64,000 nt of DNA from an uncultured Alphaproteobacteria bacterium. GTDB taxonomy: Bacteria; Pseudomonadota; Alphaproteobacteria; Sphingomonadales; SMXR01. The notes below the pieces were generated by a model, which had not been told where the DNA came from, did not search any database, and was given only the letters and a program-made list of their open reading frames with translations. The translations under genes and the position numbers were made by a program. The stretch is taken from contig CAKZLM010000017.1 in NCBI GenBank assembly GCA_937126915.1, positions 1,357-65,356 on the forward strand. The letters are read 5' to 3'. Below are positions 15,000 to 57,897 of the stretch, piece after piece. Each line of letters starts with the position of its first letter. The stretch's first letter is position 1.

Positions 15000-15737
15000 T
15001 TATGACGAATTAACAACCCTTGCCAACGACACTGCATAGACCTTTACGACCCCTGCTTTCTTTAGAGCTTTTGCACAAGCGTTAAGGGTGGCGCCGGTCG
15101 TCATTACATCATCCACCAAAAGTATGGTCTTGCCCTTAACCCCTACTTTACCCTTTTCATTTATTGAAAAAGCCGACTTAACATTTTTTTGTCGTTGGCG
15201 GGCGCCAAGACCAAATTGACTGCGCGTTGGTTTGTGCCTTTTTAAGCTGGTGGCATCAACCTCAAGGCCCGTCACCTTACCAACCGCATGAGCCATTTCA
15301 GCGGCTTGATTAAAGCGTCGTTTAAAAAGTCGCCGCCAATGCAGGGGCACTGGCATAATGATATCAATTTCATCTTGCCAAATTTTGGCAGCCCCCCACA
15401 ACCAATTGGCAAAAGCAGGCACCCCTTCATGTCGATCGCCATGCTTGAACGACAAGATCATTTTTTTGCTATGATCATCATAAAGAAAAACCGCACGGGC
15501 TTGGTCAAAGGCGTTCTTGGTTAAGGCGCAATCACCGCAGATAAGGCCAGCCGCGCCTTCTTCTTGGTTTGAGACATAATCAAATGGCACACCACAACAG
15601 GTGCATAAAGGGTGACTGATAAAATCAATTTTTGACCAACAAGCCACGCATTGTCCGCCATGGTCTTGCACATCTTCGCCACATGCAAAACAACGCGGCG
15701 GCAACAGCATATCCAAAATTTTAGCCACAACAACCAT
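15000..15737 (-). CDS. comF: ComF-family phosphoribosyltransferase-domain protein
   Basis: N-terminal Cys-rich zinc finger (CFACG...CVACW...CTCCG...CGDC) and a C-terminal PRTase motif (ILLVDDVMTTGATL). Confidence 0.8.
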   Translation of the reverse strand: MVVVAKILDMLLPPRCFACGEDVQDHGGQCVACWSKIDFISHPLCTCCGVPFDYVSNQEEGAAGLICGDCALTKNAFDQARAVFLYDDHSKKMILSFKHGDRHEGVPAFANWLWGAAKIWQDEIDIIMPVPLHWRRLFKRRFNQAAEMAHAVGKVTGLEVDATSLKRHKPTRSQFGLGARQRQKNVKSAFSINEKGKVGVKGKTILLVDDVMTTGATLNACAKALKKAGVVKVYAVSLARVVNSS

Positions 15738-40122: not shown

Positions 40123-41496
40123 TTAATCATTAGATAGAACCACCACCCTATTACGGCCTTCATGCTTGGCTTTATATAGGGCTTGGTCAGCCCGCTCCAA
40201 ACATTCTTGTGGGGTTTCATTTTCCTTTAAAATCGCCGCACCAATACTCACCGTGATGGCAATTGGCTCCTCTTGGATCGAAATTTTAAACGGTTCCTCC
40301 GCAATGGTAAGGCGCAAGCGCTCACAGATAATTTCTGCCACCCGCAGTTCAGTATCAGGCATGATAACCACAAATTCCTCACCACCATAACGGGCCGCTA
40401 AATCAACGCCGCGAATATTGCGCGCCATGCGTTCTGCAAATTCCTTCAACACCTCATCACCAGAGGCGTGACCATAGGTATCATTCACCTTTTTAAAGAA
40501 GTCGATATCCAACAAGGAAACCGTTAAATCCTTGCCCTTTTGACGGCTAGCTGTGGCTAATGTTTCCAAATGGCTAGTCATATAATGGCGGTTATAAAGC
40601 CCGGTTACCGCATCAGTGGTAGCAAGGCGCATAGAAAGGTGCAAATTCTCACGCAATTGGTCAGCAAAGCGCTTGCGCTTCAATTGTGTTTTCACCCGCG
40701 CCATCATTTCCAAACTATCAGCAGGGCGAACCAAATAATCATTGACCCCCATCTCCAAAGCACGAACCAATTGTCGGGTATCATCCTCATCGACTAAAAC
40801 CAAAATGGGCACCTGCCTGGTTTCATCAAAGGACCGAAGCTTAGAGCAGATGCGAAGGCCATCGGTGCTTTTCATGGTTAAGCTGACAATCACCAAATCA
40901 TAATTACGCTCACGGGCACGATCAGCCACTTCACTACCACCAGTTCGATGGGTAACTGTAGCAATGGTGGAAAGGTCAGCAAGCATACGTTCTGCTGCAG
41001 TTTCATTTTCTTCCATCAGCAAAATACTGGTTGTATCAGGCTCAAAAACAATTTGCTTGCCTGTATCTTCGTCCAAACCAAGCTGCAAGTCAGTCGCCTC
41101 ACGGTTCCTGAACTCATCCATGGTGACTTTTAAGCGAACCAAAGAACGCACACGCGCAAACAAGGCTACATCCCGAACAGGTTTGGTCAAAAAGTCATCG
41201 GCACCCGCCTCAAGCCCTGCAACCCGATCAGACGGTTGATCAAGCGCTGTGATCATCACCACAGGAATATGGGTTGTTAAGGGGTCAGACTTAATCTTCT
41301 CACAAACCTCAAAACCGTTCATGCCCGGCATCATAATATCTAAGAGGACGATATCGGGCTGTTCGCGCTGAATAATGTCCAAGGCTTCAGGCCCTGAAGT
41401 CGCGCAGAGCACGTCAAAATATTCGCTGGTAAGCTTTGCTTCCAGTAATTTCACATTTGGTAGGATATCATCAACGACCAGAACGCGTGCTGTCAT
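40123..41496 (-). CDS. pleD: Response regulator diguanylate cyclase PleD (REC-REC-GGDEF)
   Basis: 457-aa ORF with two receiver domains (VVDDILPNVKLLEAKLTSEYF..., LLDIMMPGMNGF). GGEEF active site with an RxxD I-site five residues upstream (RGVDLAARYGGEEF). Directly downstream of divK. Confidence 0.92.
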   Translation of the reverse strand: MTARVLVVDDILPNVKLLEAKLTSEYFDVLCATSGPEALDIIQREQPDIVLLDIMMPGMNGFEVCEKIKSDPLTTHIPVVMITALDQPSDRVAGLEAGADDFLTKPVRDVALFARVRSLVRLKVTMDEFRNREATDLQLGLDEDTGKQIVFEPDTTSILLMEENETAAERMLADLSTIATVTHRTGGSEVADRARERNYDLVIVSLTMKSTDGLRICSKLRSFDETRQVPILVLVDEDDTRQLVRALEMGVNDYLVRPADSLEMMARVKTQLKRKRFADQLRENLHLSMRLATTDAVTGLYNRHYMTSHLETLATASRQKGKDLTVSLLDIDFFKKVNDTYGHASGDEVLKEFAERMARNIRGVDLAARYGGEEFVVIMPDTELRVAEIICERLRLTIAEEPFKISIQEEPIAITVSIGAAILKENETPQECLERADQALYKAKHEGRNRVVVLSND

Positions 41497-41501
41497 CAGC
41501 C

Positions 41502-41867
41502 CTATCCAACAAACTGATTGACCGTCTCAAGGAACTGGCCAACAGAGATGGGTTTTGCAATGTAAGCTTCACAGCCACCATCACGAATTTTTTCTTCATC
41601 GCCTTTCATCGCGAAAGCCGTCACAGCAACAACAGGAATAGACTTTAATTCATCGTCTTCTTTAATCCATTTTGTTACTTCTAAGCCAGAAACCTCAGGC
41701 AATTGAATGTCCATCAAAATAAGATCGGGCTTATGTTCCCTAGCAAGATCAAGGGCAGACATACCATCCTTGGTTTGAATGGTTTCAAAGTCATGAGCTT
41801 CTAAGAGATCACAGAACAACTTCATGTTTAGCTCATTGTCTTCAACAATTAATATTTTTTTCGCCAT
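41502..41867 (-). CDS. divK: Single-domain cell-cycle response regulator DivK
   Basis: 121-aa ORF. Long stretches match the DivK sequence as I remember it ([55 protein letters not shown]). Confidence 0.88.
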
Positions 41868-45695: not shown

Positions 45696-46838
45696 ATGCA
45701 CCAAACGATCATGCCCATGTATGTAAAAACCCACAGTAGCCTGACCGAACTTTCAGCAGATAACTGGAGTTCGCTGGCAGGAGATAATCCGTTTTTGTCG
45801 TGGGAATTTATGCTGGCGTTAGAGCAATCTGGCTGTGTTAGCGCGGAAACAGGTTGGCTGCCGCATCACCTAAGCCTGCATGACGATAGTGATCAATTGC
45901 TGGGCATCATGCCACTTTATTTAAAAAGCCACAGCCAAGGCGAATATGTTTTTGATCACAATTGGGCCGAGGCCTTTCAACGCGCTGGCGGGCAATATTA
46001 TCCTAAACTGCAATCATCAGTGCCTTTTACACCCGTAACGGGGCCACGGTTATTGGCAAAAACCAAAGAACACAAAACCCTGCTAGCTATGGGGGCAGCA
46101 GAACTTTGTCAAAAGCAAAACCTCTCCAGCCTGCATATTACCTTTTTAGGCGACGATGATTTGGCGGTCCTTGAAAACACCCCCTACCTGATCAGGTCTG
46201 ATCAACAATTTCATTGGAATAATGATAATTACGCCAGCTTTGATGACTTTTTAGCTAGTCTGTCATCACGCAAACGCAAAAACATCAGAAAAGAGCGCAA
46301 AACAGCCACCCAAAACAACATCAGCATCCGTCATTTGACGGGTGATGACATTAAAGAACACCATTGGGATGATTATTTTGAGTTTTACATCAACACCAGC
46401 ATGCGCAAATGGGGAAGACCCTATTTAAACCGCGAGTTTTTCTCAACCATTGGAGAAACAATGGCGGATAAAATTGTGTTAATGTTGGCAGAAAGAGAAG
46501 GGCGATACATCGCCGGGGCCTTAAACTTTTTAGGGCCAGACACCCTTTATGGGCGCTATTGGGGGGCGATTGAACATCACCCCTGCCTGCATTTTGAACT
46601 GTGTTATTATCAAGCCATTGATTACGCTATCAGCCATAAATTAGACCGTGTTGAGGCTGGTGCCCAAGGCGAACATAAGCTCGCCCGTGGCTATGTTCCA
46701 ACCAAAACACAATCTGCCCATTTTATATCTGATCCCAATTTCCGCTCAGCCGTTGCTGACTATTTGGATCATGAAACCAATATGGTTGATCAACACATCA
46801 AAGCCCTTAACAACTTCACACCCTTCAAAAAAAGTTAA
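45696..46838 (+). CDS. FemAB-like / DUF482 GNAT-fold acyltransferase (PF04339-type)
   Basis: 380-aa ORF with NPFLSWEFMLALEQSGCV, PLYLKSHSQGEYVFDHNWAEAFQRAGGQYYPKL and PFTPVTGPRLL blocks characteristic of this family. Confidence 0.78.
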   Translation: MHQTIMPMYVKTHSSLTELSADNWSSLAGDNPFLSWEFMLALEQSGCVSAETGWLPHHLSLHDDSDQLLGIMPLYLKSHSQGEYVFDHNWAEAFQRAGGQYYPKLQSSVPFTPVTGPRLLAKTKEHKTLLAMGAAELCQKQNLSSLHITFLGDDDLAVLENTPYLIRSDQQFHWNNDNYASFDDFLASLSSRKRKNIRKERKTATQNNISIRHLTGDDIKEHHWDDYFEFYINTSMRKWGRPYLNREFFSTIGETMADKIVLMLAEREGRYIAGALNFLGPDTLYGRYWGAIEHHPCLHFELCYYQAIDYAISHKLDRVEAGAQGEHKLARGYVPTKTQSAHFISDPNFRSAVADYLDHETNMVDQHIKALNNFTPFKKS

Positions 46839-47155
46839 TCCCAAAAGGGGTTTTGAAATTTTACCGCAACACCTGCTGCGATAAATATCATGATCAATGT
46901 GGTGGTCCATTTAACCACCGTGCGCCACATGGTACGACGGGTTTCACGCCAACTGTCCAAGAGGTTTCTAAGGTCGCGCATATCGTTACTGGCACGATCA
47001 TCATGCAATCCAATGCGGGCTAAGGCCCGCTTGGCCCCAAGGTCACTGGCTTCTTCGATCAGGGCTTGCAGATGCTGGATCGACAAACCCTCTTCATGCG
47101 CTGCCTGCCCTAAGGCCGCAAGGGTGCGGCCTGGATCTTCTTCATCAGCCTTCAT
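46835..47155 (-). CDS. Small C-terminally membrane-anchored protein downstream of the portal gene (possibly the DUF6127/g3.5-like GTA-associated family)
   Basis: ATG at 47155 with an AAGGA RBS, overlapping the portal gene end. C-terminal TM segment (WTTTLIMIFIAAGVAV). The family assignment is tentative. Confidence 0.5.
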   Translation of the reverse strand: MKADEEDPGRTLAALGQAAHEEGLSIQHLQALIEEASDLGAKRALARIGLHDDRASNDMRDLRNLLDSWRETRRTMWRTVVKWTTTLIMIFIAAGVAVKFQNPFWD

Positions 47156-48389
47156 CTTTAACATCCTTAACCACATCACGCATCGGTGCGAAACCAAGGG
47201 CCTCGCGCTTTTCATCAACCGTTAAAAAATCAGCCTCACCAATGCGTTTCCATAGGGCTTCACGCTCACTTTGCAAGGCTGGAATGGCGTCACGGTCAAC
47301 CCGCAATTCAAGCTCAGAACCAAACTTTGGCACCAACCAACTGTTAAGCGCAGCAGCGGTTTTCTCTAACAAAGGCAATAGGGTTAAACGCCACAAGGCG
47401 CGATTGGCTTCGGCATAATTGGCATAGGTATTATCGCCCGGAATACCCAACAACATGGGTGGCACACCAAAAGCCAAGGCAATTTCTCTCGCCGATACAT
47501 GCTTGGCATTGATAAATTCCATATCCGCAGGACTAAAAGCAATTTGTTGCCATTTAAGCCCCCCTTCAAGCAAGAAAGGCCGCCCTGCATTACTAGCCCC
47601 CATATAATGGCTTTCCAGTTCGTTTTTCAAGCGATCAAACTGTTCATCGGTTAAGCTGGATGATTGCCCCTCGCCCGGCTCAAACACCAAGGCACCTGAG
47701 GGCCGTGCTGCGTTATCAAATAAGGCCTTGTTCCAACCCGACGCTGCATTATGAATATCAACGCCATATGCCGCCGCTTCAAGTGGGCTAAGACCGTACC
47801 AGTCATCGGTTGGATGAAAGGTTTTAAGATGCAGCACAGGGCTTTCGCCGGTAATGAAGTCAACCGGAAAACTATGGGTTTTAGCGCCAACCTTATAATC
47901 ATAGCGAACAGGAAAGCCCTTGCTGCCCGGAACAATCTGCATTCGGTCAGGCCTTAAGGTATAAATTTCGGCAACATGCCCACTGGCATTGGCAACACCT
48001 TCTAACCAACCATTTCCGGCAATTTGCAAATAACTGTAAAAACTTTCCAATAAATCTTTACCTGATTGTAAGGGATTAGGTTTTACCAACAAATCTAATA
48101 AAGCATGGTGCTTGATAGGTTGGCCCCCGCGATAAAGCTTGAAAGGGATGGATGCTGCACTTTCTGCGACAATTTTCACAGCGCGGTTGGCTATAACATT
48201 TTTCCGATAACCTTCTTTAGCAAGGTTTTCATAATTACGGTTGGTCCATTGCGGCTGCTTAAGACCCAGCCAATGGGTCGCACTTGCAGAGGTTTTTAGG
48301 CCGCCAATGGCGCTAGCCTTTTGTTCAACCAAGGCTGTGGTACCGTTTGCACCACGCACTTTTGTGATAAATGATTTGATTAAAGACAT
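47145..48389 (-). CDS. Phage portal protein, HK97/GTA family
   Basis: Start at MSLIKSF (48389) with an AAGGAG RBS. Portal family blocks are present (NPLQSG..LLES.Y..LQI.GN.WLE, EPGEG...LTDEQF.RLK.ELE, FGVPP.LLG). Confidence 0.9.
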   Translation of the reverse strand: MSLIKSFITKVRGANGTTALVEQKASAIGGLKTSASATHWLGLKQPQWTNRNYENLAKEGYRKNVIANRAVKIVAESAASIPFKLYRGGQPIKHHALLDLLVKPNPLQSGKDLLESFYSYLQIAGNGWLEGVANASGHVAEIYTLRPDRMQIVPGSKGFPVRYDYKVGAKTHSFPVDFITGESPVLHLKTFHPTDDWYGLSPLEAAAYGVDIHNAASGWNKALFDNAARPSGALVFEPGEGQSSSLTDEQFDRLKNELESHYMGASNAGRPFLLEGGLKWQQIAFSPADMEFINAKHVSAREIALAFGVPPMLLGIPGDNTYANYAEANRALWRLTLLPLLEKTAAALNSWLVPKFGSELELRVDRDAIPALQSEREALWKRIGEADFLTVDEKREALGFAPMRDVVKDVKDEG

Positions 48390-48581
48390 ATCTGTCTCTC
48401 CTTTAAGTCGCCACATTGTGGTGGCAAATAATGTTCATAAGAGAAGCCTTGGCGATGCTCGAAAATATCGCCACAAGCCATGAAATGGGGATTGCGCTTT
48501 TGGGGTAAGGGCTGTATGTTGCCGTCACATTCAGCCTCTCGCAAAGGCCTGAACAAACTATTGGAAAGGAAACGCCGAACC

Positions 48582-49049
48582 ATGAACGCTAAAAAAACAA
48601 TTGCAGCCCTAGCAACCGGCCTTTTAATGGCGGTATCAGGTGCAACCGTTTCATGGGCGCAAGACCTTCCAACCAATCCGGTTGAGCAATCAACACCGCG
48701 GACCGCTGCACCAATAACCAGCAGCCCCGTGGCACAGGATTGTGGTTTCCCTCCACAAGAAAAGCCGGTTATCCCATCAGGTGCCATTGCCAACCGCACC
48801 CAAATGAATGCGGCTATTTCTGGTATTCGCACCTATGGTACCTTGGTAAATAATTATCTTAACTGTATGGAGGCCAATCGCGAAAAAATGTTCGTTCATA
48901 TGAACAAAGAACAACGCGATCGCTGGATTGATGACTTCAATGGCGTGGCTGATGAATTAGAAGTTCTTCAAAACAAAATTAACGAAGAAATTCGTGCCTT
49001 CAATCGCTCTTCCAACAACAGTGAAGGCGGCACCATTCAAAACAACTAA
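48582..49049 (+). CDS. Hypothetical exported protein
   Basis: The internal Met start gives the signal peptide MNAKKTIAALATGLLMAVSGATVSWA/QD. It has two Cys residues and a coiled-coil-like C-terminus. It lies on the opposite strand inside the phage-like cluster. Confidence 0.6.
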   Translation: MNAKKTIAALATGLLMAVSGATVSWAQDLPTNPVEQSTPRTAAPITSSPVAQDCGFPPQEKPVIPSGAIANRTQMNAAISGIRTYGTLVNNYLNCMEANREKMFVHMNKEQRDRWIDDFNGVADELEVLQNKINEEIRAFNRSSNNSEGGTIQNN

Positions 49050-49070
49050 ACCCCTTTTGCTTAGTCAGTT

Positions 49071-50255
49071 TTAGTAACGATTGCCACGCAAGCTTTCATA
49101 AACCATGGCTTTTGCAGTTGCGGCAATTTGTGGCGCAGCTTGGTAAATTTCTGCACGAACGGTGTTTTTCACATCCGGCGTAAAATGCACATTTTGCACC
49201 ATGTTCATCGCAGGTTTTGCCCCTGCACCAGCACCCTCTCCTAAGGAGCGCGCCACAGTTCCAGCATGATCAGGAATAAAAATTTCAGGGCGCTTTTCCC
49301 CCACTAAATAAGGCGTTCCTGCTGACACACGACCACCCGTTTCACGGCCAAAGAAACTGCCAAGCAAGCCACCTAGCCCACCACCACTGGCAGCGCCAAG
49401 ATCAGAAAAGCCAAACATCATCGGGATAAGCTTTTGAACCAGCATATTCTTAGCCATTTGCTTCAATTGTTTACCCAGTGATTTAATCGAAAACTCACCA
49501 CTTTGTAACATCGCGTCAAAGGCACCAATGGCATTATCCTTGAAAGCCTCAATCTCGATGTTCCATGCTTCCATGGTGATCTTTTTATCGTCCAAAACAT
49601 CTTTGACCTCATCGTTTTTTTTATCCAACGATACATTGCTGCCGTTTATACCGCCATTAAAGCCATTAGCAAGGGTTGCAGATGCCTCAATTGGGGTCAT
49701 TAAACCAGTTTCACCATCCACCGTTAAACCAGCCTTTTCAAGTACTTGGTTAAGCAGATCAAACAGTTGTTGAAAATCATCACTACAAGGGCATTCCTTT
49801 TCCATCAAGGCAGTTGCTTCGGTGGATAATGTGTCAAAATCTTCCGGCGATGTCACCGTTTTAAGGGCCTCAACGGCTTTACCTGTCACAGTTGATGGCC
49901 TCACCCCTTCCCCTTTTGTGGGTAGTAATTCTGCAAAGGCTGCTTTCAAAATATTTCGGGTTTCTTCTTCAGACGCTTTCAAATCAGTAATGACTTTTTC
50001 ATTGGCTGACATTAAGACTGATTTAATCGCCGCAGGATTGGTTTCACCCAAAGTGATTAAAGCATCTAATTTGGTAAGCATGGCATCCATTTTACCTTGG
50101 CCTTGATTGCCACCCGTTTCTTCGCCTACCAATTCATCTTTGGGCAGAACATTATTCTCTTGCCCCTCTTTAGAGTTTGCTCCGCCAACAGCGTTTTTGA
50201 TGGCATCAACACTGGTGTTAATATTTGTCAAAATATCTGAAATACAGGGCATCAT
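49071..50255 (-). CDS. Phage tail tape-measure-like protein
   Basis: 394-aa ORF. Helical, low-complexity N-terminal part and a Gly-rich C-terminal motif typical of GTA/siphovirus tape-measure C-termini (GGLGGLLGSFFGRETGGRVSAGTPYLVGEKRPEIFIP). ATGA overlap with the upstream gene. Confidence 0.72.
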   Translation of the reverse strand: MMPCISDILTNINTSVDAIKNAVGGANSKEGQENNVLPKDELVGEETGGNQGQGKMDAMLTKLDALITLGETNPAAIKSVLMSANEKVITDLKASEEETRNILKAAFAELLPTKGEGVRPSTVTGKAVEALKTVTSPEDFDTLSTEATALMEKECPCSDDFQQLFDLLNQVLEKAGLTVDGETGLMTPIEASATLANGFNGGINGSNVSLDKKNDEVKDVLDDKKITMEAWNIEIEAFKDNAIGAFDAMLQSGEFSIKSLGKQLKQMAKNMLVQKLIPMMFGFSDLGAASGGGLGGLLGSFFGRETGGRVSAGTPYLVGEKRPEIFIPDHAGTVARSLGEGAGAGAKPAMNMVQNVHFTPDVKNTVRAEIYQAAPQIAATAKAMVYESLRGNRY

Positions 50256-50458
50256 TGTCTCCTATCTTTTAATTTCTTGATTGTTTCAGGCTCGCCATGC
50301 TTTTCCAGCAGGGTCAAAAACTCTTCCCGTTTCATGGGGTTTTTTGCTCTAACACCCAGTTTTTCCATCAAGCCATCTAGGGCTGCGTTAAATTCCCATG
50401 GGGTTGCTCGCCAAAAATCTGTTGGGGTCCAGTTCAAATAGGCACTGGCTATGCCCAA
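50252..50458 (-). CDS. Phage tail assembly chaperone-like small protein (rcc01693-type)
   Basis: 68-aa ORF. The W.P.DFWRATPWEF.AAL.G pattern and its position between the GTA-family protein and the tape measure support the call. Confidence 0.6.
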   Translation of the reverse strand: MGIASAYLNWTPTDFWRATPWEFNAALDGLMEKLGVRAKNPMKREEFLTLLEKHGEPETIKKLKDRRQ

Positions 50459-50496
50459 ATAGTCATAAAAAGGAAATTTGGTCAGCGGCTCCTTTT

Positions 50497-50826
50497 CTAG
50501 GCCGCTATCCCCTTTCCCTTTTTACCACCGCTTAAAGCAAGTGATATAAAGCGCGCCATCGACTGGTTGGCTTCCGCTTGATTGTGTCGAATCCACACTT
50601 CAACCGCCTTAATATCTTCAATCGGATCAACAGCCATATAATGTAGCAACTCCAATATCTCTGAGACACTCGCTTGGTTGGTGGTTAGACGCTCAATAAC
50701 GGGGATAAGACTGCGGTCAATTTGGTTTTCCACCTTCAACAAGGTTTCAAAAGTTGGCACCATCCAGATCACTTGTTTTTCAATGATTAGTTTGGCTTCA
50801 TTACGGGCTTCAAAAAATGTTAACAT
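50497..50826 (-). CDS. Gene-transfer-agent-family protein (tail assembly chaperone position)
   Basis: Assigned from its position after the major tail gene, its size (about 109 aa from the internal Met) and a helical LL..E pattern. The start is uncertain; the alternative is GTG at 50898. Confidence 0.55.
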   Translation of the reverse strand: MLTFFEARNEAKLIIEKQVIWMVPTFETLLKVENQIDRSLIPVIERLTTNQASVSEILELLHYMAVDPIEDIKAVEVWIRHNQAEANQSMARFISLALSGGKKGKGIAA

Positions 50827-50954
50827 ATCTTTCTCACTCTTCTCATAGCTATAAAAAGCCTGAGGCAGGGTTTGAGCTACAATCAATTTAGCAGCCACCT
50901 AAACCCAACCTCAGGTCAGTTTCACCAGAAATGGAAATCTTAAATGTTAGGGGG

Positions 50955-51368
50955 TTAGTTAGCAGTGAAAGTTACAGCACCGGATGATTCCAGTGAAATG
51001 CTGTAAGTTACCTCACCATTGTGTTCACCAGAAAACTCAAGGCTGGTGACCTGAAACTCAGCTTCATAGGTCCCAAAATCTGGCACAACAATTTGCCATT
51101 TATGAAGGGCTTTTGATCGCGCCAAGCCCTCCACATTGGTGAATGTGGTATCGTCCATAAAGACACCACTGCCAGATGTGGAAAAGGATTGCACACCCCC
51201 ACCTGATAACAATTCACGCATATTGTTGCTGGACTTAGACGTGATGTCGATGGTTTCATTGTTCATGCTGAACGAGTTTGAGCGAAACCCACCGACATCT
51301 AAATATGTCCCTGGGGTGCCGCTGTCTTCAATTTTCAATAAAAAGTCTTTACCGTGTTGAGCAGCCAT
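50955..51368 (-). CDS. Phage major tail protein, TP901-1 family
   Basis: 137-aa ORF with a typical N-terminus (GKDFLLKIEDSGTPGTYLDVGGFRSNSFSMNNETIDITSK). Confidence 0.85.
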   Translation of the reverse strand: MAAQHGKDFLLKIEDSGTPGTYLDVGGFRSNSFSMNNETIDITSKSSNNMRELLSGGGVQSFSTSGSGVFMDDTTFTNVEGLARSKALHKWQIVVPDFGTYEAEFQVTSLEFSGEHNGEVTYSISLESSGAVTFTAN

Positions 51369-51397
51369 TTGGCTTCTCCTTTCTTTCAGTTGTTGAT

Positions 51398-51436
51398 AAA
51401 AAAAATGCCCAACTTTGGCACGATGCCAAAGTTAGG
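51398..51436 (-). terminator. Strong intrinsic terminator inside the phage-like cluster
   Basis: The minus strand reads GCCTAACTTTGGCA-TCG-TGCCAAAGTTGGGC followed by eight T. It lies between orf 51525..51872 and the major tail gene. Confidence 0.7.
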
Positions 51437-51524
51437 CGGTAGAGTTGGCTTTAAGCCAGCGAGGAATGATCCCCCTTTTTCAATGGCCTTTCATCTAAAG
51501 GCTATTGAGAAAACTTTTATGTTG

Positions 51525-51872
51525 TTAAGTGTCGTTAGCCGCGTTCATCATCAAACCTGCTATCACTTTTTGTTGAAAGCTATCGGTTGAATGAAGTAAG
51601 TGCTGTTTTAAATAATCACCCATCGGATGGGGCATTTGATCCAAATTTTCAGCCCATTGAGGTAGCTTAGATTGCTGGTCAAAATAACCCTGCGCTTTTT
51701 TAAGCGGATTATCCATTGCCTTAAAATACTCAACAAACAACGTCTCCAACCAGTTTTCATGGAGGGCCAGCAAGGCATAAACCCGCGAAACTTCTTGTAT
51801 CATCTGATCTTCCATCATCTCTGGATCAGACATTTGTAAGTCTTTTAACTCTTTCATTTTAGACATGGTCAT
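51525..51872 (-). CDS. Hypothetical protein (no counterpart at this position in canonical GTA clusters as I remember them)
   Basis: ORF-only evidence. It is acidic and Met-rich, and is followed by its own terminator. Confidence 0.5.
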   Translation of the reverse strand: MTMSKMKELKDLQMSDPEMMEDQMIQEVSRVYALLALHENWLETLFVEYFKAMDNPLKKAQGYFDQQSKLPQWAENLDQMPHPMGDYLKQHLLHSTDSFQQKVIAGLMMNAANDT

Positions 51873-51892
51873 TCCTCTCTTTTGGGGCTAGG

Positions 51893-52300
51893 TTATTCTG
51901 TAGTAATGGCCTTAAAGCGCATAACCCCGTGATACAGCGGCTCAGGCCCTTCGGTATCGCGAAAATCTTCGGCATAATCAAAACGGATAAAAACCAAATG
52001 GTTATCGGTTACCGTCATATTTTGCTCATGAAGACAATTATGAATTAAACCCATAATTTCTTTCACCTGCATGCGGCCTGCATCATCGGACCAAATATCC
52101 AGAACAAAGGTGTGTTCCGCGCCGGTTGAGGTTTTGGTTGATTTATCGCGTACTGTGCCATCGCCCATCGTGATATATGGGTATAGGGCATCGGTGTCAG
52201 GCTCATCCCACACCGCATCAACAATCGCCATAATGGCGCTATCATTGGTTAGTTTTGTATAAACTGCGCTTTGCAATTCATAAGCTGCCATGGCTGACAT
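51893..52300 (-). CDS. DUF3168 phage tail-completion-like protein
   Basis: The pattern L..AVYT.L....A....V.....DEP......YPYIT.G.......K........H.F.L.IWS is typical of DUF3168/GTA proteins. Confidence 0.78.
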   Translation of the reverse strand: MSAMAAYELQSAVYTKLTNDSAIMAIVDAVWDEPDTDALYPYITMGDGTVRDKSTKTSTGAEHTFVLDIWSDDAGRMQVKEIMGLIHNCLHEQNMTVTDNHLVFIRFDYAEDFRDTEGPEPLYHGVMRFKAITTE

Positions 52301-52392
52301 GGTTCATTCTCCATAAAAAAACCACCCCAAAAATATTGGCGTGGTTGACATAACATAATTTAAAAACAATCCCTTAACTTAGGCTGTGATTG

Positions 52393-52722
52393 TTAGGTTT
52401 CTTCTTCACATTGAAACTGAATCCAATGATTTTCTTCGTTCACATTGATGGTGGATTTCACCACAAACTGGCGACTGCCATAATCAATGCGGCGGGTGGT
52501 TAAATAACTGGAGTGGTAAGGCACCATCAAAGTATGGGTCACAGGATATTCCATCCTTTCAGCCCGTTGAACCGCACCAAGTGGCTTTGGCTTTAAATCT
52601 GCCCAAACATTTGAGATAAGCTGCCAAGTCACGGTTTTGCGCCCACCCTCCCCAATCACTTGGAGGCGTTCATAAAGGCTAACGCGATGCTTCAAATTAT
52701 TATAATGAAGACCTAATTTCAT
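52393..52722 (-). CDS. Phage head-tail adaptor (head closure) protein
   Basis: 109-aa ORF. Size, position and the pattern (R..L......G..GG.........WA...P) fit the HK97-gp10/SPP1-gp16-like family. Confidence 0.75.
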   Translation of the reverse strand: MKLGLHYNNLKHRVSLYERLQVIGEGGRKTVTWQLISNVWADLKPKPLGAVQRAERMEYPVTHTLMVPYHSSYLTTRRIDYGSRQFVVKSTINVNEENHWIQFQCEEET

Positions 52723-53309
52723 ACCAACCTCCGCTTTCTGTAGGGCGACAATAATTCTGTAACACCAAAAGGAATAGGCTTAAGAGCGGCATCGGTCACG
52801 GGCAGGCGCGATTCATAAAAATGACTTACCAACTGGGTAATTGCTTGACGAATAACCGATGGAATATCACTGGGGTTTTCGCCAAACCCTGCCTGATAAT
52901 GAATTTCTATACCCTCAGGAAACCGCAGGGGTTGCGGCCATGATGTTGTTTCTTTGCGAAAAATTTGATCCAATGATTTGGCGACATAATAATTATCATT
53001 GTTCCAAATGGTTGGATTGCCTGCTTCATCATAAAGATAAATATTATCCACACCCATCAAGGGGCCAATGGGCACATCCAAGCTTCTAGCTGGGCTGTTT
53101 GATTTTCTGGCAGGCCAACGACTTAATTGCCAACCATAGGTGCGTTTGATCAAGGCCAAACCAAGATACTCTTCAACATAGCGTCGTGCAGCGGCAATTA
53201 AGTGCGATAAATAGTCATCGTCATCAACATGATCAATGCGCACATGCGATTTGACATCACTAAGGGAAACAGGCTCCACCAGGGGGCCCGTCAGCAAAAC
53301 AGGGTTCAT
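52719..53309 (-). CDS. Phage head-tail connector (gp6-like) protein
   Basis: Start at MNPVLL (53309) with a GGAGAA RBS. The block LSDVKSHVRIDHVDDDDYLSHLIAAARRYVEEYLG is the typical gp6-like connector N-terminus. 4-nt overlap with the adaptor gene. Confidence 0.8.
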   Translation of the reverse strand: MNPVLLTGPLVEPVSLSDVKSHVRIDHVDDDDYLSHLIAAARRYVEEYLGLALIKRTYGWQLSRWPARKSNSPARSLDVPIGPLMGVDNIYLYDEAGNPTIWNNDNYYVAKSLDQIFRKETTSWPQPLRFPEGIEIHYQAGFGENPSDIPSVIRQAITQLVSHFYESRLPVTDAALKPIPFGVTELLSPYRKRRLV

Positions 53310-53639
53310 TGTGATTCTCCAAATATAAAAAAAGCCACACACCCCATCATAGGGCCTGCGGCTGCGCTAAAAAATAACTAGCGAGAACATGAAAACCAGA
53401 ATGCTGAACGCAATACTGGCATTAACCACACTATAGCGAACCTGTGTGACGGTGTCAAGAAAATAATTATCCCTTATGGTTATATTTTATGTAAGAGGCA
53501 CCATCAACTAAGGTCATATTGGTTTTTGGGGTTTTGGTTTTTTGGAGGGGCTGATCTGATGATCCAGCGAATGGATACAAAAAAAGCCCCAATCAGCAAT
53601 GTGACAAGGGCTTTTACAATCACAAAAAGAAAAGAAACC

Positions 53640-55979
53640 TTAGGCCTTTTCGGCAGGCTTTTTCTTTGCCTTAGAGGTTTTCTTTTTGGCAGCGGGTGCC
53701 TTAGGGATAATCTCAAACGACAGGTTACCCTCTTTAGCATGAACCACCACTTCACCGCCTTTTTGCAACTTCCCAAATAACAGTTCATCAGCCAGCGGGG
53801 TTTTAATTTTCTCTTGAATTAAACGCGATAAAGGCCGCGCGCCAAACAAGCGATCATACCCTTTCTTGGCTAGGTATTTTTTTGCTTCATTGCTTAGGCT
53901 AATCTCTACTTGACGATCTGATAGTTGCATCTCAAGCTCAAGAATGAATTTATCAACCACACGCTCTATCACCTCATCAGAGAGATAATCAAATGGCACA
54001 ATCGCATCTAAGCGGTTTCTAAATTCAGGCGTAAACATGTTTTTAATGGCTTCATCATCGGCATCGAGCTTATTGCTAGCGCCAAAGCCAATGGCCTGTT
54101 TCGCCATTTCTTTTGCCCCAGCGTTGGTGGTCATGATTAGAACGACATTCCTAAAATCAACCGACTTACCATTGCTGTCCGTTAAGGTGCCGTTATCCAT
54201 CACCTGTAATAAAACATTAAACAGGTCAGGATGGGCTTTTTCAATTTCATCAAGCAGCAAAACACAATGGGGATGCTGATCAATGGCATCGGTTAGCAAG
54301 CCACCTTGGTCAAAACCGACATAGCCTGGAGGTGCCCCAATCAAGCGCGATACAGCGTGGCGTTCCATATATTCTGACATATCAAAGCGCTTTAACGGTA
54401 CACCTAATAGATAGGCTAACTGACGCGCTACTTCGGTTTTACCAACGCCTGTCGGGCCAGAGAATAGATAATTACCGATCGGCTTGTTTTCATCACGTAA
54501 ACCTGCACGCGACAATTTAATCGCTGAACTTAAAACCTTAATCGCTCTATCTTGCCCAAAGACAACACGACGCAGGTCCGATGATAAGTTTTTCATCACC
54601 CGCGCATCGTCTTTATTGACCGATTTTTCGGGAATACGGGCAATTTTAGCAACCACGGCTTCCACATCTTTCACCCCAATGACCTTGCGACGTTTTGAGG
54701 TTGGCTTTAAGGCCTCAGCCGCACCCACTTCATCAATCACGTCAATGGCGCTGTCTGGAAGCTTGCGGTCATTGATATAACGAGCTGATAAATCAACCGA
54801 TGCCTTAATCGCCTCATTGGTATAGCGCAGGTTATGATATTCCTCATAATATGGTTTTAAGCCCTGCATAATTTTAATGGCATCGTCTTTTGATGGTTCA
54901 TTAACATCAATTTTTTGGAAGCGACGCAACAAGGCGCGGTCTTTCTCAAAATGAGACCGAAATTCTTTATAGGTGGTTGACCCCATGCAGCGAATGCTAC
55001 CAGAGGATAACGCAGGCTTTAAAAGGTTAGAGGCATCCATGGCGCCACCAGATGTGGCCCCTGCCCCAATGACAGTATGAATTTCATCAATAAACAAAAC
55101 TGCATCAGGATGATCTTCTAATTCTTTCACCACCGCTTTTAGACGTTCTTCAAAGTCACCACGATAGCGGGTTCCTGCCAACAAAGCGCCCATATCAAGA
55201 GAATAAATCTCTGAGGCAGCCAAGACATCTGGCACCTCTTCATTGGCAATTTTAAGGGCCAAACCTTCAGCAATGGCGGTTTTGCCAACACCGGGGTCAC
55301 CCACCAACAGCGGATTGTTTTTATTGCGACGACATAACACTTGAATAACCCGTGCCACTTCATTGTCACGGCCAATAAGGGGGTCAATTTTCCCATCATA
55401 GGCTTTTTGGTTTAAATTAACGCAATAACTATCCAAGGCACCTTTGGCAACTTCGACATTATCTTCGCCCACACTTTGGGTGCTTTCTTCCGCATCACTA
55501 ACCCCTGTGATAGGGCGTTCTTGCGACATGTTAGTCACCTTGGCTACACCATGACTGATGTAACTTACCGCATCAAAACGGGTCATATCCTGCTGTTGAA
55601 GATAATAAGTAGCATAGCTTTCACGTTCACTGAACAAGGCTACCAAGACATTGGCACCAGTGGTTTCTTCACGGCCCGAGCTTTGGACATGCAAAATGGC
55701 GCGCTGCACCACCCGCTGGAAGGCAATCGCAGGGGTTGCCTCAACCGGCTCATCATCCTCAGCCACAAGATAGGTTAAATGTTCATCAATGAATTCAATC
55801 AATTGTTCACGAAGCAAGCCAATATCAACAGCACATGCCACCAACACCGCAATGGCATCAGGGTCATCAAGAAGGCCCAACAATAAATGCTCTAAAGTAG
55901 CGTATTCATGGTTGCGCTTATTGGCCTCGCCCAAGGCACGGTGAAGGGTTTGTTCTAATGCTGATGAAAACGCGCTCAT
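53640..55979 (-). CDS. clpA: ATP-dependent Clp protease ATP-binding subunit ClpA
   Basis: 779-aa ORF with the Clp N-domain and two AAA+ modules ([19 protein letters not shown]). Confidence 0.97.
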
Positions 55980-57063: not shown

Positions 57064-57897
57064 TTAAGAAGCCTGTGCCAAGCTTTCAAGTGATGGTAGG
57101 CGCAAGCATTCCATCAAACGGCGTAACTCTTGGCGTGCTGCCACCTCAGACATACTAAGACCCTTGCCACCAAGGCCCGATGTTTTCTTTAAATCAACCA
57201 AGGTGAGACCTTTCAAGAAAAGCTCACGATAAATCACCCGCTCGCCAAAACCCGCAACAAATCGGAAGCCAACACGTTTTGCCAATTTTTCAAGAACCCC
57301 CTCAACATAACGTTTATTGCGAGCATCAATGCCAGACACACGGTTACGCAAAACGATCCAATCAATTTGGCCTTTATCACGGGTGGCGCGGGCCTGCCTG
57401 CTTTTCCAAACCATCTCAGAATAAAGGCTTAATTGCTCAACCTCATGGGTGTTGGGGTTTACTTTTGCCAGCAAATCCACATCCACAAAGCTATCATTCA
57501 CAGGCGTTATGATGGTATCTGCCCAACTGTGAGCAAGGCGGGATAGAAACGAATCGCTACCCGGACAATCAATCACCAAAATATCAGCGTCTTTCGACAA
57601 TTCTTCATATGCCTTCATAAAACGTCTGGTTTCATCGGCCTCCATTTCTTTGACCGTAGGCAGGTCTGATTTTGGCAGCACCACATGCGGATTAGGCAGC
57701 AGTCTAACGTTTTTTTCCTCAGCAAAGCGGCGGCGATTTTCGAAATAGCGGGTCAATGTTCTTTGACGTGCATCTAAATCCATACTAGCAACGCGATATC
57801 CCTCGCGCTGTAAATTCATAATCAAGTGCATCGCGGTGGTTGACTTGCCACAACCACCCTTTTCATTTCCCAGCACAATGACGTGGGGTCTGCTCAT
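57064..57897 (-). CDS. mipZ: Division-plane positioning ATPase MipZ
   Basis: N-terminus VIVLGNEKGGCGKSTTAMHL...DLDARQRTLTRYFENRR closely follows the MipZ signature (a ParA-like deviant Walker A). Confidence 0.87.
   Translation of the reverse strand: MSRPHVIVLGNEKGGCGKSTTAMHLIMNLQREGYRVASMDLDARQRTLTRYFENRRRFAEEKNVRLLPNPHVVLPKSDLPTVKEMEADETRRFMKAYEELSKDADILVIDCPGSDSFLSRLAHSWADTIITPVNDSFVDVDLLAKVNPNTHEVEQLSLYSEMVWKSRQARATRDKGQIDWIVLRNRVSGIDARNKRYVEGVLEKLAKRVGFRFVAGFGERVIYRELFLKGLTLVDLKKTSGLGGKGLSMSEVAARQELRRLMECLRLPSLESLAQAS

Follow-up and report, generated by a model that had tools for sequence, protein, structure and literature searches.

A Permuted and Incomplete Head-Tail Gene Cluster of an Uncultured Alphaproteobacterium Is Probably One Locus of a Two-Locus Gene Transfer Agent

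INTRODUCTION

When a cluster of phage-like head and tail genes is both permuted and incomplete, is it the decaying remnant of a gene transfer agent (GTA), or one piece of a GTA with its remaining modules at other sites? The question is raised by a 64-kb stretch of DNA from an uncultured alphaproteobacterium (contig CAKZLM010000017.1; this whole stretch is called the window below), in which such a cluster occupies positions 46835-53309, on the minus strand except for one plus-strand open reading frame (ORF). A first-pass annotation made from the sequence had left the choice between the two answers undecided. We found the absent head, packaging, and tail-tip genes on a second contig from the same metagenome sample, L143, and because of this we regard the cluster as split and reshuffled rather than decaying. 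In the reading that we consider likely, the window contains locus B, and L143 locus A, of a coregulated RcGTA-like GTA with two loci, in an uncultured alphaproteobacterium near Emcibacter, Kordiimonas, and the Sphingomonadales.

RESULTS

Gene content of the cluster in the window

Genes were assigned by combining the ORF listing with profile searches of Pfam, NCBIfam/TIGR, and PHROG. In the order of transcription on the minus strand, the cluster consists of g6, g7, g8, orf115, g9, g10, g10.1, g11, the reverse ORF (rev, plus strand), the portal gene, and a DUF6127 gene:

52719-53309, minus strand: g6-like head-tail connector/adaptor, 196 aa (Phage_connect_1 PF05135, 51 bits; TIGR02215, 129.6 bits; phrog_442)
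52393-52722, minus strand: g7-like head closure/stopper protein, 109 aa (Phage_HCP PF05521, profile positions 4-106 of 106; TIGR01563)
51893-52300, minus strand: g8-like tail terminator, 135 aa (Tail_completion_gp17/DUF3168 PF11367, 99 bits, profile positions 2-123 of 124; phrog_176)
51525-51872, minus strand: orf115 (called as 113 aa), an acidic, Met-rich orphan between g8 and g9, no family
50955-51368, minus strand: g9-like TP901-1-type major tail tube protein, 137 aa (Phage_tail_2 PF06199, 137 bits, profile positions 1-132 of 132; TIGR02126)
50497-50898, minus strand: g10-like tail assembly chaperone, 133 aa (weak match to Phage_TAC_11/GTA-gp10 PF11836, 19.4 bits, under the cut-off)
50252-50458, minus strand: g10.1-like chaperone extension (Phage_TAC_6 PF09550, 30.8 bits)
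49071-50255, minus strand: g11-like tape measure, 393/394 aa (recognizable only in the C-terminal ~130 aa, by matches to tape-measure PHROGs and to g11 of the relative L002)
48582-49049, plus strand: rev, 155 aa, signal peptide, no family, homologues at the same place in relatives
47145-48389, minus strand: HK97-type portal protein (g3), 414 aa (Phage_portal PF04860, 292 bits; TIGR01537, 223.6 bits)
46835-47155, minus strand: DUF6127 small membrane protein, 106 aa, C-terminal transmembrane helix (PF19622, 95.8 bits)

This is the gene order given by the first-pass annotation, including its main peculiarity, a portal module that lies downstream of the tape measure gene. The relation to phages and GTAs also held in the profile searches, where the cluster ORFs matched head-tail families (g10 weakly), with the exception of orf115, rev, and the DUF6127 gene. 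Three of the earlier calls required refinement. The "GTA-family protein" does match such a family, but below the cut-off, and it can be taken for g10 mainly because it is flanked by the genes for the major tail protein and g10.1. The "small membrane protein" is indeed a membrane protein and could be further identified as a DUF6127 protein, a family found between portal and protease (the g3.5 position) in the canonical relatives L028, L029, L031, L094, and L095. Finally, the opposite-strand ORF does encode a signal peptide, but rather than a stray gene it is a conserved partner of the portal gene throughout the clade described below.

The g6 protein is 37% identical to its L002 counterpart over the full length and the g9 protein 64%; the portal is identical to protein P0001. 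The tape measure gene starts at its canonical position in an ATGA overlap with g10.1, and its 393-aa product is about twice as long as that of L002 and L006 (187 aa). If tail length scales with the tape measure, the tail in the window lineage would be about twice as long. The g10.1 gene is absent as a separate gene from the ENA annotation. Frame analysis showed its frame to be open from within the 3' end of g10 through an AAAAAGG site, which suggests that g10.1 is expressed by a -1 frameshift at this site; an open overlapping frame across a slippery site is the usual layout of frameshifted tail chaperones. As for orf115, it had no match in Pfam, PHROG, or NCBIfam, only itself was retrieved among 1.84 billion representative proteins, and the relatives have no such gene between g8 and g9.

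The first-pass annotation had also reported that terminase, protease, capsid, and distal-tail genes are missing from the window. In agreement with this, TerL, protease, capsid, and g12 to g15 of a close relative gave no tblastn match in the 64 kb at an E value of ≤1. There is no head, packaging, or tail-tip gene for 46.8 kb on one side of the cluster and 10.7 kb on the other, and Pfam scans of the other large window ORFs returned housekeeping genes only (prmC, prfA, hisS, ispG, rodZ, ptsP, secA, topA, rnr, dinB-like, divK/pleD-like, mipZ, panC, and mgtE).

A second contig of the same sample carries the complementary gene set

L143 was found by searching a protein collection with a capsid profile built from relatives and inspecting the contexts of the candidate capsids. 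It is an 11,087-bp contig (ENA assembly ERZ928060, run ERR2094171) from the same sample as the ENA contigs of the window, and it encodes capsid P0142. Its genes are, in order, an acyl-CoA dehydrogenase gene, a divergent Xre-type helix-turn-helix (HTH) gene, a DUF6456 gene, g1, and the genes for TerL, S78 protease, and HK97 capsid, followed by g12, g13, g14, and g15. The DUF6456 protein (267 aa; PF20057, 128.7 bits) is GafA-like, and its gene lies directly upstream of g1. The capsid scored 406 bits against the HK97 capsid profile, g14 is a DUF6950 gene, and g15, a Phage-tail_3 gene, runs off the contig end; g12 and g13 had no Pfam match.

L143 encodes no portal, rev, DUF6127, or g6 to g11, and since only 71 nt separate TerL from protease and only 99 nt capsid from g12, there is no space for these genes. 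Reciprocally, gafA is found on L143 only, with none in the window. The window thus holds g3, DUF6127 at the g3.5 position, g6 to g9, g10 (weakly recognizable), g10.1, and g11, and L143 holds g1, g2, g4, g5, and g12 to g15: the two sets do not overlap in a single gene and jointly make up exactly one complete cluster. L143 and the window share no DNA. Two other capsids were considered as the missing partner and rejected: P0126 belongs to the L002-type metagenome-assembled genome (MAG) CSMAG_1841 and P0132 to the L024 type.

The tetranucleotide correlation between L143 and the window was 0.96, compared to 0.962 to 0.976 for chunks inside the window and 0.93 for the best foreign locus. In divergence from L002, the window portal stood at 70%, the L143 capsid at 68%, and the L143 TerL at 57%. 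The GC content was 0.48 in the GTA part of L143 versus 0.449 in its flank, and 0.452 in the window cluster versus 0.455 in the rest of the window. NCBI genome records also contain both portal P0001 (66.9-kb contig) and capsid P0142 (28.9-kb contig). Together, the common sample, the composition, the congruent divergence, and the complementarity strongly suggest that L143 and the window come from one genome. The missing modules, for which the first-pass annotation had proposed profile searches, have been located, and their membership in the same genome is probable. Further searches brought no closer relative: a chimeric portal-capsid query against the GTDB representative genomes gave a best portal-part identity of 56%, and scans of JGI metagenomes (one) and of IMG/VR (two, with portal and capsid) yielded no relative closer than 64%.

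Both loci carry the same type of promoter

The elements around and within the window cluster are listed below, together with the genes on either side. Both of these genes abut the cluster, as the first-pass annotation had noted.

53640-55979, minus strand: clpA, the upstream flank, with clpS
53430-53481, minus strand: predicted locus promoter (AACC-N5-GG box, 53481-53469; -35 TTGACA, 53458-53453; 17-nt spacer; -10 TATAGT, 53435-53430)
53326-53363, minus strand: terminator-like leader hairpin followed by U7, downstream of the promoter and ahead of g6
52313-52346, minus strand: terminator-like hairpin and U-run between g7 and g8
51397-51437, minus strand: terminator-like hairpin with a 14-bp stem and U8 between orf115 and g9, the strongest of the locus
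45696-46838, plus strand: FemAB_like gene, convergent, with a 4-nt overlap with the DUF6127 stop

The promoter sits in the 330-bp spacer between clpA and g6. Its TTGACA-17-TATAGT core, with 11 of 12 matches, is the best sigma-70-like site between 45.5 and 54.5 kb. The pattern AACC-N5-GG-N10-12-TTGAC occurs twice in the window, compared to 0.07 expected occurrences, and none of 100 shuffled sequences reached two. The same architecture (ACC-N5-GG, 10 to 12 nt, TTGAC, 17 nt, -10) was found upstream of g1 in L143, L002, L023, L024, and L004, and among the 143 loci scanned the composite pattern is nearly confined to these promoters. As in L143, the DUF6456 gene lies directly upstream of g1 in L002, L004, L023, L024, and L031. 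As judged from its sequence, the window locus has a dedicated promoter of the GTA type.

The second copy of the box in the window (AACCTTAATGGATAAAAAATAGCTTGAC) lies at 23668-23695 on the plus strand, upstream of a 49-aa ORF (23758-23907) that by eye resembles the N terminus of a peptidoglycan-binding domain. Either chance or an accessory promoter of a GTA regulon could account for this copy.

The full palindrome AACC-N5-GGTT was present between the HTH and DUF6456 genes in all eight loci that cover this region. In the window it occurs at 46775, 48671, and 52921, in each case in the cluster or within ~60 nt of it, and one of these copies is identical to the site at the gafA promoter of L004. 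The number of copies in the window is not significant (3 versus 1.05 expected; 5 of 100 shuffles reached at least 3). We found no CtrA box (TTAA-N7-TTAA) in the promoter regions examined, only one half-site, in L002.

The 114-nt leader folded with -39.5 kcal/mol (z = -3.9), and comparable leader hairpins were found upstream of g1 in L143 and L024. The fold of the hairpin between orf115 and g9 was calculated at -23.3 kcal/mol (z = -6.3). L143 also has strong hairpins in the TerL-protease and capsid-g12 spacers. Between 45.5 and 54.5 kb we counted 19 terminator-like sites, compared to 10.3 ± 3.5 in shuffled sequences. Our own terminator scan is crude and noisy within coding regions, and only the intergenic sites were used.

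Permutation is a trait of a clade with complete gene sets

We annotated 191 loci with one reference set and regarded those with at least four recognizable genes as informative (n = 100). Eighty-four of these were collinear with the canonical order g2-g3-(g3.5)-g4-g5-g6 and onwards, and 12 of the 16 non-collinear loci belonged to the group of the window. In a neighbor-joining tree of the portal, the permuted clusters formed a single clade, nested among canonical clusters of alphaproteobacterial MAGs and with a canonical sister group. The closest portal homologues come from uncultured Alphaproteobacteria, and the named neighbors are Emcibacter, Paremcibacter, Govanella, Iodidimonas, and "Sphingomonadales" MAGs. 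The contexts of the relatives show complete gene sets in several orders, always on one strand:

L002, L003, L006, and L023: g1 g2 rev g3, g6-g11, g3.5 g4 g5, g12-15 (L006 and L023 are partial contigs that agree with this order over the parts covered)
L024-L027: g1 g2 rev g3, g9, g3.5 g4 g5, g10 g10.1 ..., g6 g7 g8, g12-15 (10 contigs from JGI, Logan, and ENA; L025 and L027 duplicate L024)
L004: g1 g2 rev g3, many small ORFs, g9 g10 g10.1, g3.5 g4 g5
L005: g4 g5 g6 g7 g8, rev g3, ... g9 g10

At least four same-strand orders with complete sets thus exist besides that of the window, and permutations recur in several independent samples. The closest relative, L022, comes from different samples and has a portal 77% identical to that of the window. 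At its junction, the tape measure C terminus is followed by rev, the portal gene, and host genes, as in the window, and the tape measure proteins end similarly (...FDTLKGNRRY* against ...YESLRGNRY*, L022 versus window). Since L022 has this same order, the junction of the window type is old and shared. Permutation is therefore a trait of this clade. The description "permuted" in the first-pass annotation was correct, but the cluster is not an oddity of a single lineage, since relatives with complete sets are likewise permuted.

Several further observations were made on the relatives. The g8/g9 boundary, which in the window is the site of orf115, coincides with a rearrangement breakpoint in L005 and L024. 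Strong hairpins with a T-run coincide with boundaries of rearranged blocks (L024, 8433, 8939, 11299, and 15816; L143, 5261 and 7279; L002, 16740); these could be terminators bounding modules or sites involved in rearrangement. Wherever the contig extends far enough to the left, as it does in four relatives (L002, L003, L004, and L024), the neighbors of the cluster are the same host genes, of the DUF3450/ExbBD type. These flanks span 15-4202 in L002, 20-3748 in L004, and 1-389 in L024. Just beyond the DUF3450 gene lies an ExbB/ExbD block in L002, L003, and L004 (with TonB in L002); the sequence of L024 reaches no further than DUF3450. The tonB gene belongs to the families in which the trend of translational efficiency follows that of the GTA genes (Kogay et al. 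2022, PMC9765227).

Many portals of the relatives are 680 to 740 aa long (e.g., L004, 10001-12217; L005, 4105-6261; L022, 791-2941) and consist of the portal domain, a C-terminal extension, and a variable C-terminal domain. The extension is MuF-like according to Pfam (PF04233) in P0018, P0021, and P0026, and a motif of the NCRC type was seen by eye in P0002, P0003, and P0013; the variable domain of P0026 is a lysozyme (PF00959). This layout recalls the MuF polymorphic toxins that phage particles deliver. The 414-aa portal of the window has no such extension.

The reverse ORF travels with the portal

Homologues of rev are found at the same position in L002-L005, L022-L024, L029, and L030. In all members of the clade, rev is divergent and just upstream of the portal gene, and it travels with the portal in every rearrangement. 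It also occurs in the short contig L030 and in L029, whose visible part is in canonical order. The protein is specific to the clade and secreted, with a helical domain of ~90 aa and two conserved cysteines in the motif CGFPP...YLNC (CGFPP...YL.C across the clade). No family matched it at an E value of ≤0.1, and a set of 5.8 billion proteins contained only three homologues sharing words with it. AlphaFold2 predicted a helical hairpin, with low confidence (predicted local distance difference test [pLDDT], 61). Because the portal gene lies downstream of this antisense gene, its transcription would need either read-through or a promoter of its own in the 192-bp rev-portal spacer.

The window genes show signs of maintenance

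All 10 homologous ORFs are intact and full length by profile coverage, and their products have the lengths seen in the relatives, except for the longer tape measure. We compared protein distances to four canonical outgroups between the window and relatives with complete, contiguous clusters:

Portal: 0.328 in the window, 0.318-0.349 in the relatives
g6: 0.679 in the window, 0.626-0.689 in the relatives
g8: 0.669 in the window, 0.641-0.686 in the relatives
g9: 0.572 in the window, 0.509-0.580 in the relatives

The distance of g7 was also inside the range of the relatives, and those of DUF6127 and g10.1 were slightly above it. Between the portal genes of the window and its closest relative, the proportions of nonsynonymous (pN) and synonymous (pS) differences were 0.147 and 0.765 (saturated), a pN/pS of 0.19. 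Because the synonymous divergence was saturated in every comparison (pS, 0.76 to 0.82), we report only pN/pS and relative rates. The portal pN/pS is consistent with purifying selection, which the first-pass annotation had proposed to test, and there is no general acceleration. Overall, we saw no truncations, frameshifts, or stops, no general acceleration, no unconserved regulation, and no unshared layout, i.e., none of the marks of a decaying remnant.

Other features of the window

There are no tRNA genes in the window. At 23246-24073, four direct copies and additional inverted copies of a ~74-nt repeat (TTTCCCGATCCTCCCTTTGGTCGTCCGATGAAACGTGCTGATGGCTCAGAATTGCTTTCGCAATTCGG), similar to miniature inverted-repeat transposable elements or repetitive extragenic palindromes, lie at the edge of a low-GC island (24143-27036; GC, 0.34 to 0.36 versus 0.45). 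The island contains three ORFs without a significant family match, one for a protein of 397 aa in which the motif HEIIH resembles that of zinc metalloproteases and two for a paralogous pair with signal peptides (264 and 271 aa), and it is possibly a horizontally acquired cassette of the toxin/immunity type. The window also carries a divK/pleD-like response-regulator pair (40123-41867, minus strand), mipZ (57064-57897, minus strand), and a ComF-type gene with a double zinc ribbon and a phosphoribosyltransferase domain (15000-15737, minus strand). In model species, cell-cycle and DNA-uptake functions are tied to GTA control and reception.

DISCUSSION

A split GTA with a common switch

Locus B would provide head completion and the tail shaft (g6 to g11), followed by the portal module (rev, portal, and DUF6127), and locus A the Xre-type HTH regulator, the GafA-like activator, g1, TerL, protease, capsid, and g12 to g15. 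Because both have the same type of promoter, with ACC-N5-GG 10 to 12 nt upstream of TTGACA, the two loci would be switched on together. By analogy with known GTAs, the DUF6456 protein, the Xre-type regulator, or both may act on the repeated box and turn on the two operons. Since terminator-like hairpins lie in the leader and between genes, full-length transcripts would need processive antitermination, which might carry transcription past these hairpins as GafZ does in the Caulobacter CcGTA. The products of both loci would then come together in trans to build a small HK97-like head and a siphovirus-like tail.

As to history, rev may have been inserted upstream of the portal gene in a canonical ancestor, followed by same-strand block rearrangements in one clade and by the parting of [g6-g11][rev-portal-DUF6127] from the rest, with a copy of the promoter. 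Tandem duplication and differential loss would explain such rearrangements. The L002 order can be reproduced by a single tandem duplication of the cluster with differential loss, and the L024 order needs two rounds. For the window, [rev-g3-g3.5] could have moved behind g11, followed by duplication of the cluster or relocation of a block with complementary deletions, and this would account for both the order and the g1-type promoter in front of g6. Ordinary block transposition is an alternative route. The conserved strand and the compact junctions would fit a tandem duplication with later differential loss, a process best known from mitochondrial genomes. We put forward only tentatively, with slightly less than even confidence, the wider proposal that this marine clade has repeatedly reshuffled an otherwise near-invariant GTA operon (at least five same-strand orders, each apparently complete) and that the window lineage ended with two operons, each with a GafA-type promoter and a leader terminator. 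If this is true, gene order would be unconstrained after domestication, once the element no longer packages its own genome, and a trans-acting activator/antiterminator would suffice.

Several points weigh against a functional two-locus GTA. The link between the two contigs is indirect, and tetranucleotide similarity separates close relatives poorly, L005 also scoring 0.93. A transcript from the g6 promoter must cross rev in antisense to reach the portal gene, unless the latter has its own promoter. The roles given to terminators and antitermination are read from the DNA. Within the cluster, g10 is only weakly recognizable, the tape measure is twice as long as in the relatives, and an orphan ORF and a strong hairpin lie between g8 and g9. 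At the other end, with g12 and g13 lacking a Pfam match and a DUF6950 gene as g14, the distal tail differs at the profile level from that of RcGTA, in which g14 is an NlpC/P60 peptidase.

Some of these points would be explained if the cluster were the leftover of a nonfunctional GTA or HK97-like prophage drifting towards deletion, the first of the two answers considered by the first-pass annotation. Nine of roughly 17 canonical genes are missing from the window, DUF6127 and g10.1 have diverged slightly more than their counterparts in the relatives, and RcGTA-like clusters that are small or incomplete are frequent and have higher evolutionary rates (PMC5721377). Such a remnant would not be expected to keep 10 intact, full-length homologous ORFs without general acceleration and with a portal pN/pS of 0.19, a GTA-type promoter with 11 of 12 matches directly upstream, a layout shared with a relative at 77% portal identity, and an exact complement in the same sample. 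We thus consider decay unlikely, and the second answer, a GTA piece with its other modules elsewhere, fits the complement on L143. It is also improbable that L143 and the window derive from two related bacteria with a merely coincidental complementarity. Sample identity, composition, and complementarity are all that links the contigs, and relatives of this clade do co-occur in metagenomes, as L003 and L005, which derive from one run, illustrate. Two independent partial clusters would, however, have been split at the same four boundaries by a remarkable coincidence, leaving gene sets that never overlap and jointly form one complete set, with agreeing composition and divergence levels and with both proteins also in NCBI genome records.

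A chimeric or misjoined contig could in principle have created both the permutation and the junctions with clpA and the FemAB-like gene, since the source is a short-read metagenome whose ENA assembly is fragmented elsewhere (L007, 5.7 kb). This artefact, one of two findings that the first-pass annotation had named as overturning its reading, is very unlikely: an independently assembled 32-kb ENA contig is 99.99% identical over 21 kb, both cluster junctions included, the junctions are tight, with the 4-nt overlap onto the FemAB-like gene, L022 has the same tape measure/rev/portal/host order in other samples, and other permutations recur in independent samples. Likewise, every recognizable gene has phage homologues, an Xre/CI-like HTH gene adjoins locus A, and the MuF-like extensions of some related portals are typical of phages, so that the genes might be ascribed to an inducible HK97-like temperate prophage. 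This is scarcely credible, because apart from the Xre-type HTH gene neither the window nor L143 contains an integrase, replication, lysis, or att/tRNA feature, housekeeping genes surround the structural genes, which are placed at two sites of the chromosome, g1 has a GafA-type DUF6456 gene as its neighbor (PMC9638019), and the same DUF3450/ExbBD-type genes neighbor the cluster in four relatives.

Implications

If the two-locus reading is right, it bears on how GTAs are recognized. Detection tools depend on contiguity, and incomplete clusters are read as decay. Operational definitions require at least nine homologues with gaps of ≤5 kb, or at least six GTA-classified genes with gaps of ≤8 kb (PMC5721377, PMC6821227). 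Counting the window and L143 as one genome, g1 to g15 are represented, but in a permuted order and divided between two places. There is a GafA-type activator (the DUF6456 protein of L143), phage modules are absent, and the chromosomal context looks stable, with clpS/clpA, mipZ, and FemAB-like, dinB-like, divK/pleD-like, rnr, and topA genes in the window and the acyl-CoA dehydrogenase gene beside L143. Integrase/att, replication, lysis, and immunity functions together with a complete structural module, as expected of a functional HK97-like prophage, were found neither in the window nor on L143, apart from the Xre-type HTH gene. Taken alone, the window locus has only four of the 11 GTA-Hunter genes, short of the six genes within 8 kb on which GTA-Hunter bases the call of a cluster. 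Co-expression of a split virus-like particle, the constraints on the order of phage structural genes, and the share of "incomplete" GTAs in MAG surveys that are in fact split all become testable.

Comparison with known systems

RcGTA (Lang & Beatty; PMC5721377; PMC6821227) is similar in having an HK97-type portal, protease, and capsid, a gp6-like connector, a head closure protein, a DUF3168 protein, a TP901-1-type tail tube, two chaperones, a short tape measure, a Phage-tail_3 g15, and a T4-type TerL. It also shares the GafA/DUF6456 activator, the core chromosomal setting, and the lack of an adjacent integrase, replication, or lysis module. However, RcGTA-like clusters are contiguous (~14 to 15 kb) and collinear, whereas here the genes occupy two loci at least 12 kb apart, with the order [g6-g11][rev-g3-g3.5] in the window, and a reverse-strand gene for a secreted protein accompanies the portal. 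GafA homologues are annotated as DUF6456 proteins and coevolve with the head-tail cluster (PMC9638019, PMC9765227). In RcGTA, gafA lies outside this cluster (PMC9765227), whereas here it adjoins g1. Accessory loci are a feature of RcGTA itself, too.

In Caulobacter, GafY and integration host factor (IHF) activate the main cluster promoter and ~18 accessory promoters (Tran & Le 2024, PMC11150451), GafZ lets RNA polymerase through the cluster terminators, and RogA represses gafYZ (PMC11150451). The repeated promoter box described here resembles this multipromoter regulon of the Caulobacter crescentus CcGTA, and the leader hairpins with U-runs and the intergenic hairpins recall its long leader with an early terminator to be bypassed. 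Similarly, the divergent HTH gene next to the DUF6456 gene would correspond to the repressor at the gaf promoter. Unlike here, where the core structural set is divided, CcGTA has its structural genes in one 14-kb cluster and only accessory genes elsewhere. Its terminators are 150-bp repeats rather than simple hairpins, here predicted from sequence, and it has separate GafY and GafZ instead of a single DUF6456 protein.

Dispersed head-tail homologues, with the terminase off the main cluster, are known from the scattered GTA clusters of Rickettsiales/Holosporaceae (George et al. 2022, PMC9254644; see also Christensen & Serbus 2020 as cited there). These endosymbiont sets are often incomplete, their tail genes have dN/dS values of 0.2 to 0.9 (relaxed), and the genomes are reduced, whereas here the two parts jointly form a complete set, the window locus is without acceleration and has a dedicated GTA-type promoter, and the large housekeeping contigs look like those of a free-living bacterium. 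Defective HK97-like prophage remnants also have partial structural gene sets without integrase or lysis genes, but they normally contain pseudogenes, are not conserved across lineages, and have no regulon-type promoter, none of which applies to the case described here. Splitting has been a speculation for some incomplete RcGTA-like clusters (Shakya et al. 2017, PMC5721377), and in the searchable literature, which excludes subscription journals, we found no description of a gene-for-gene split of the core, a duplicated GTA promoter, or a clade with several orders. By its gene content, the system belongs with the RcGTA-like GTAs and leaves the definition of a GTA unchanged. What it adds is a concrete case of two halves whose genes complement each other one by one, a GTA promoter copy of its own in the second half, and a clade with alternative gene orders.

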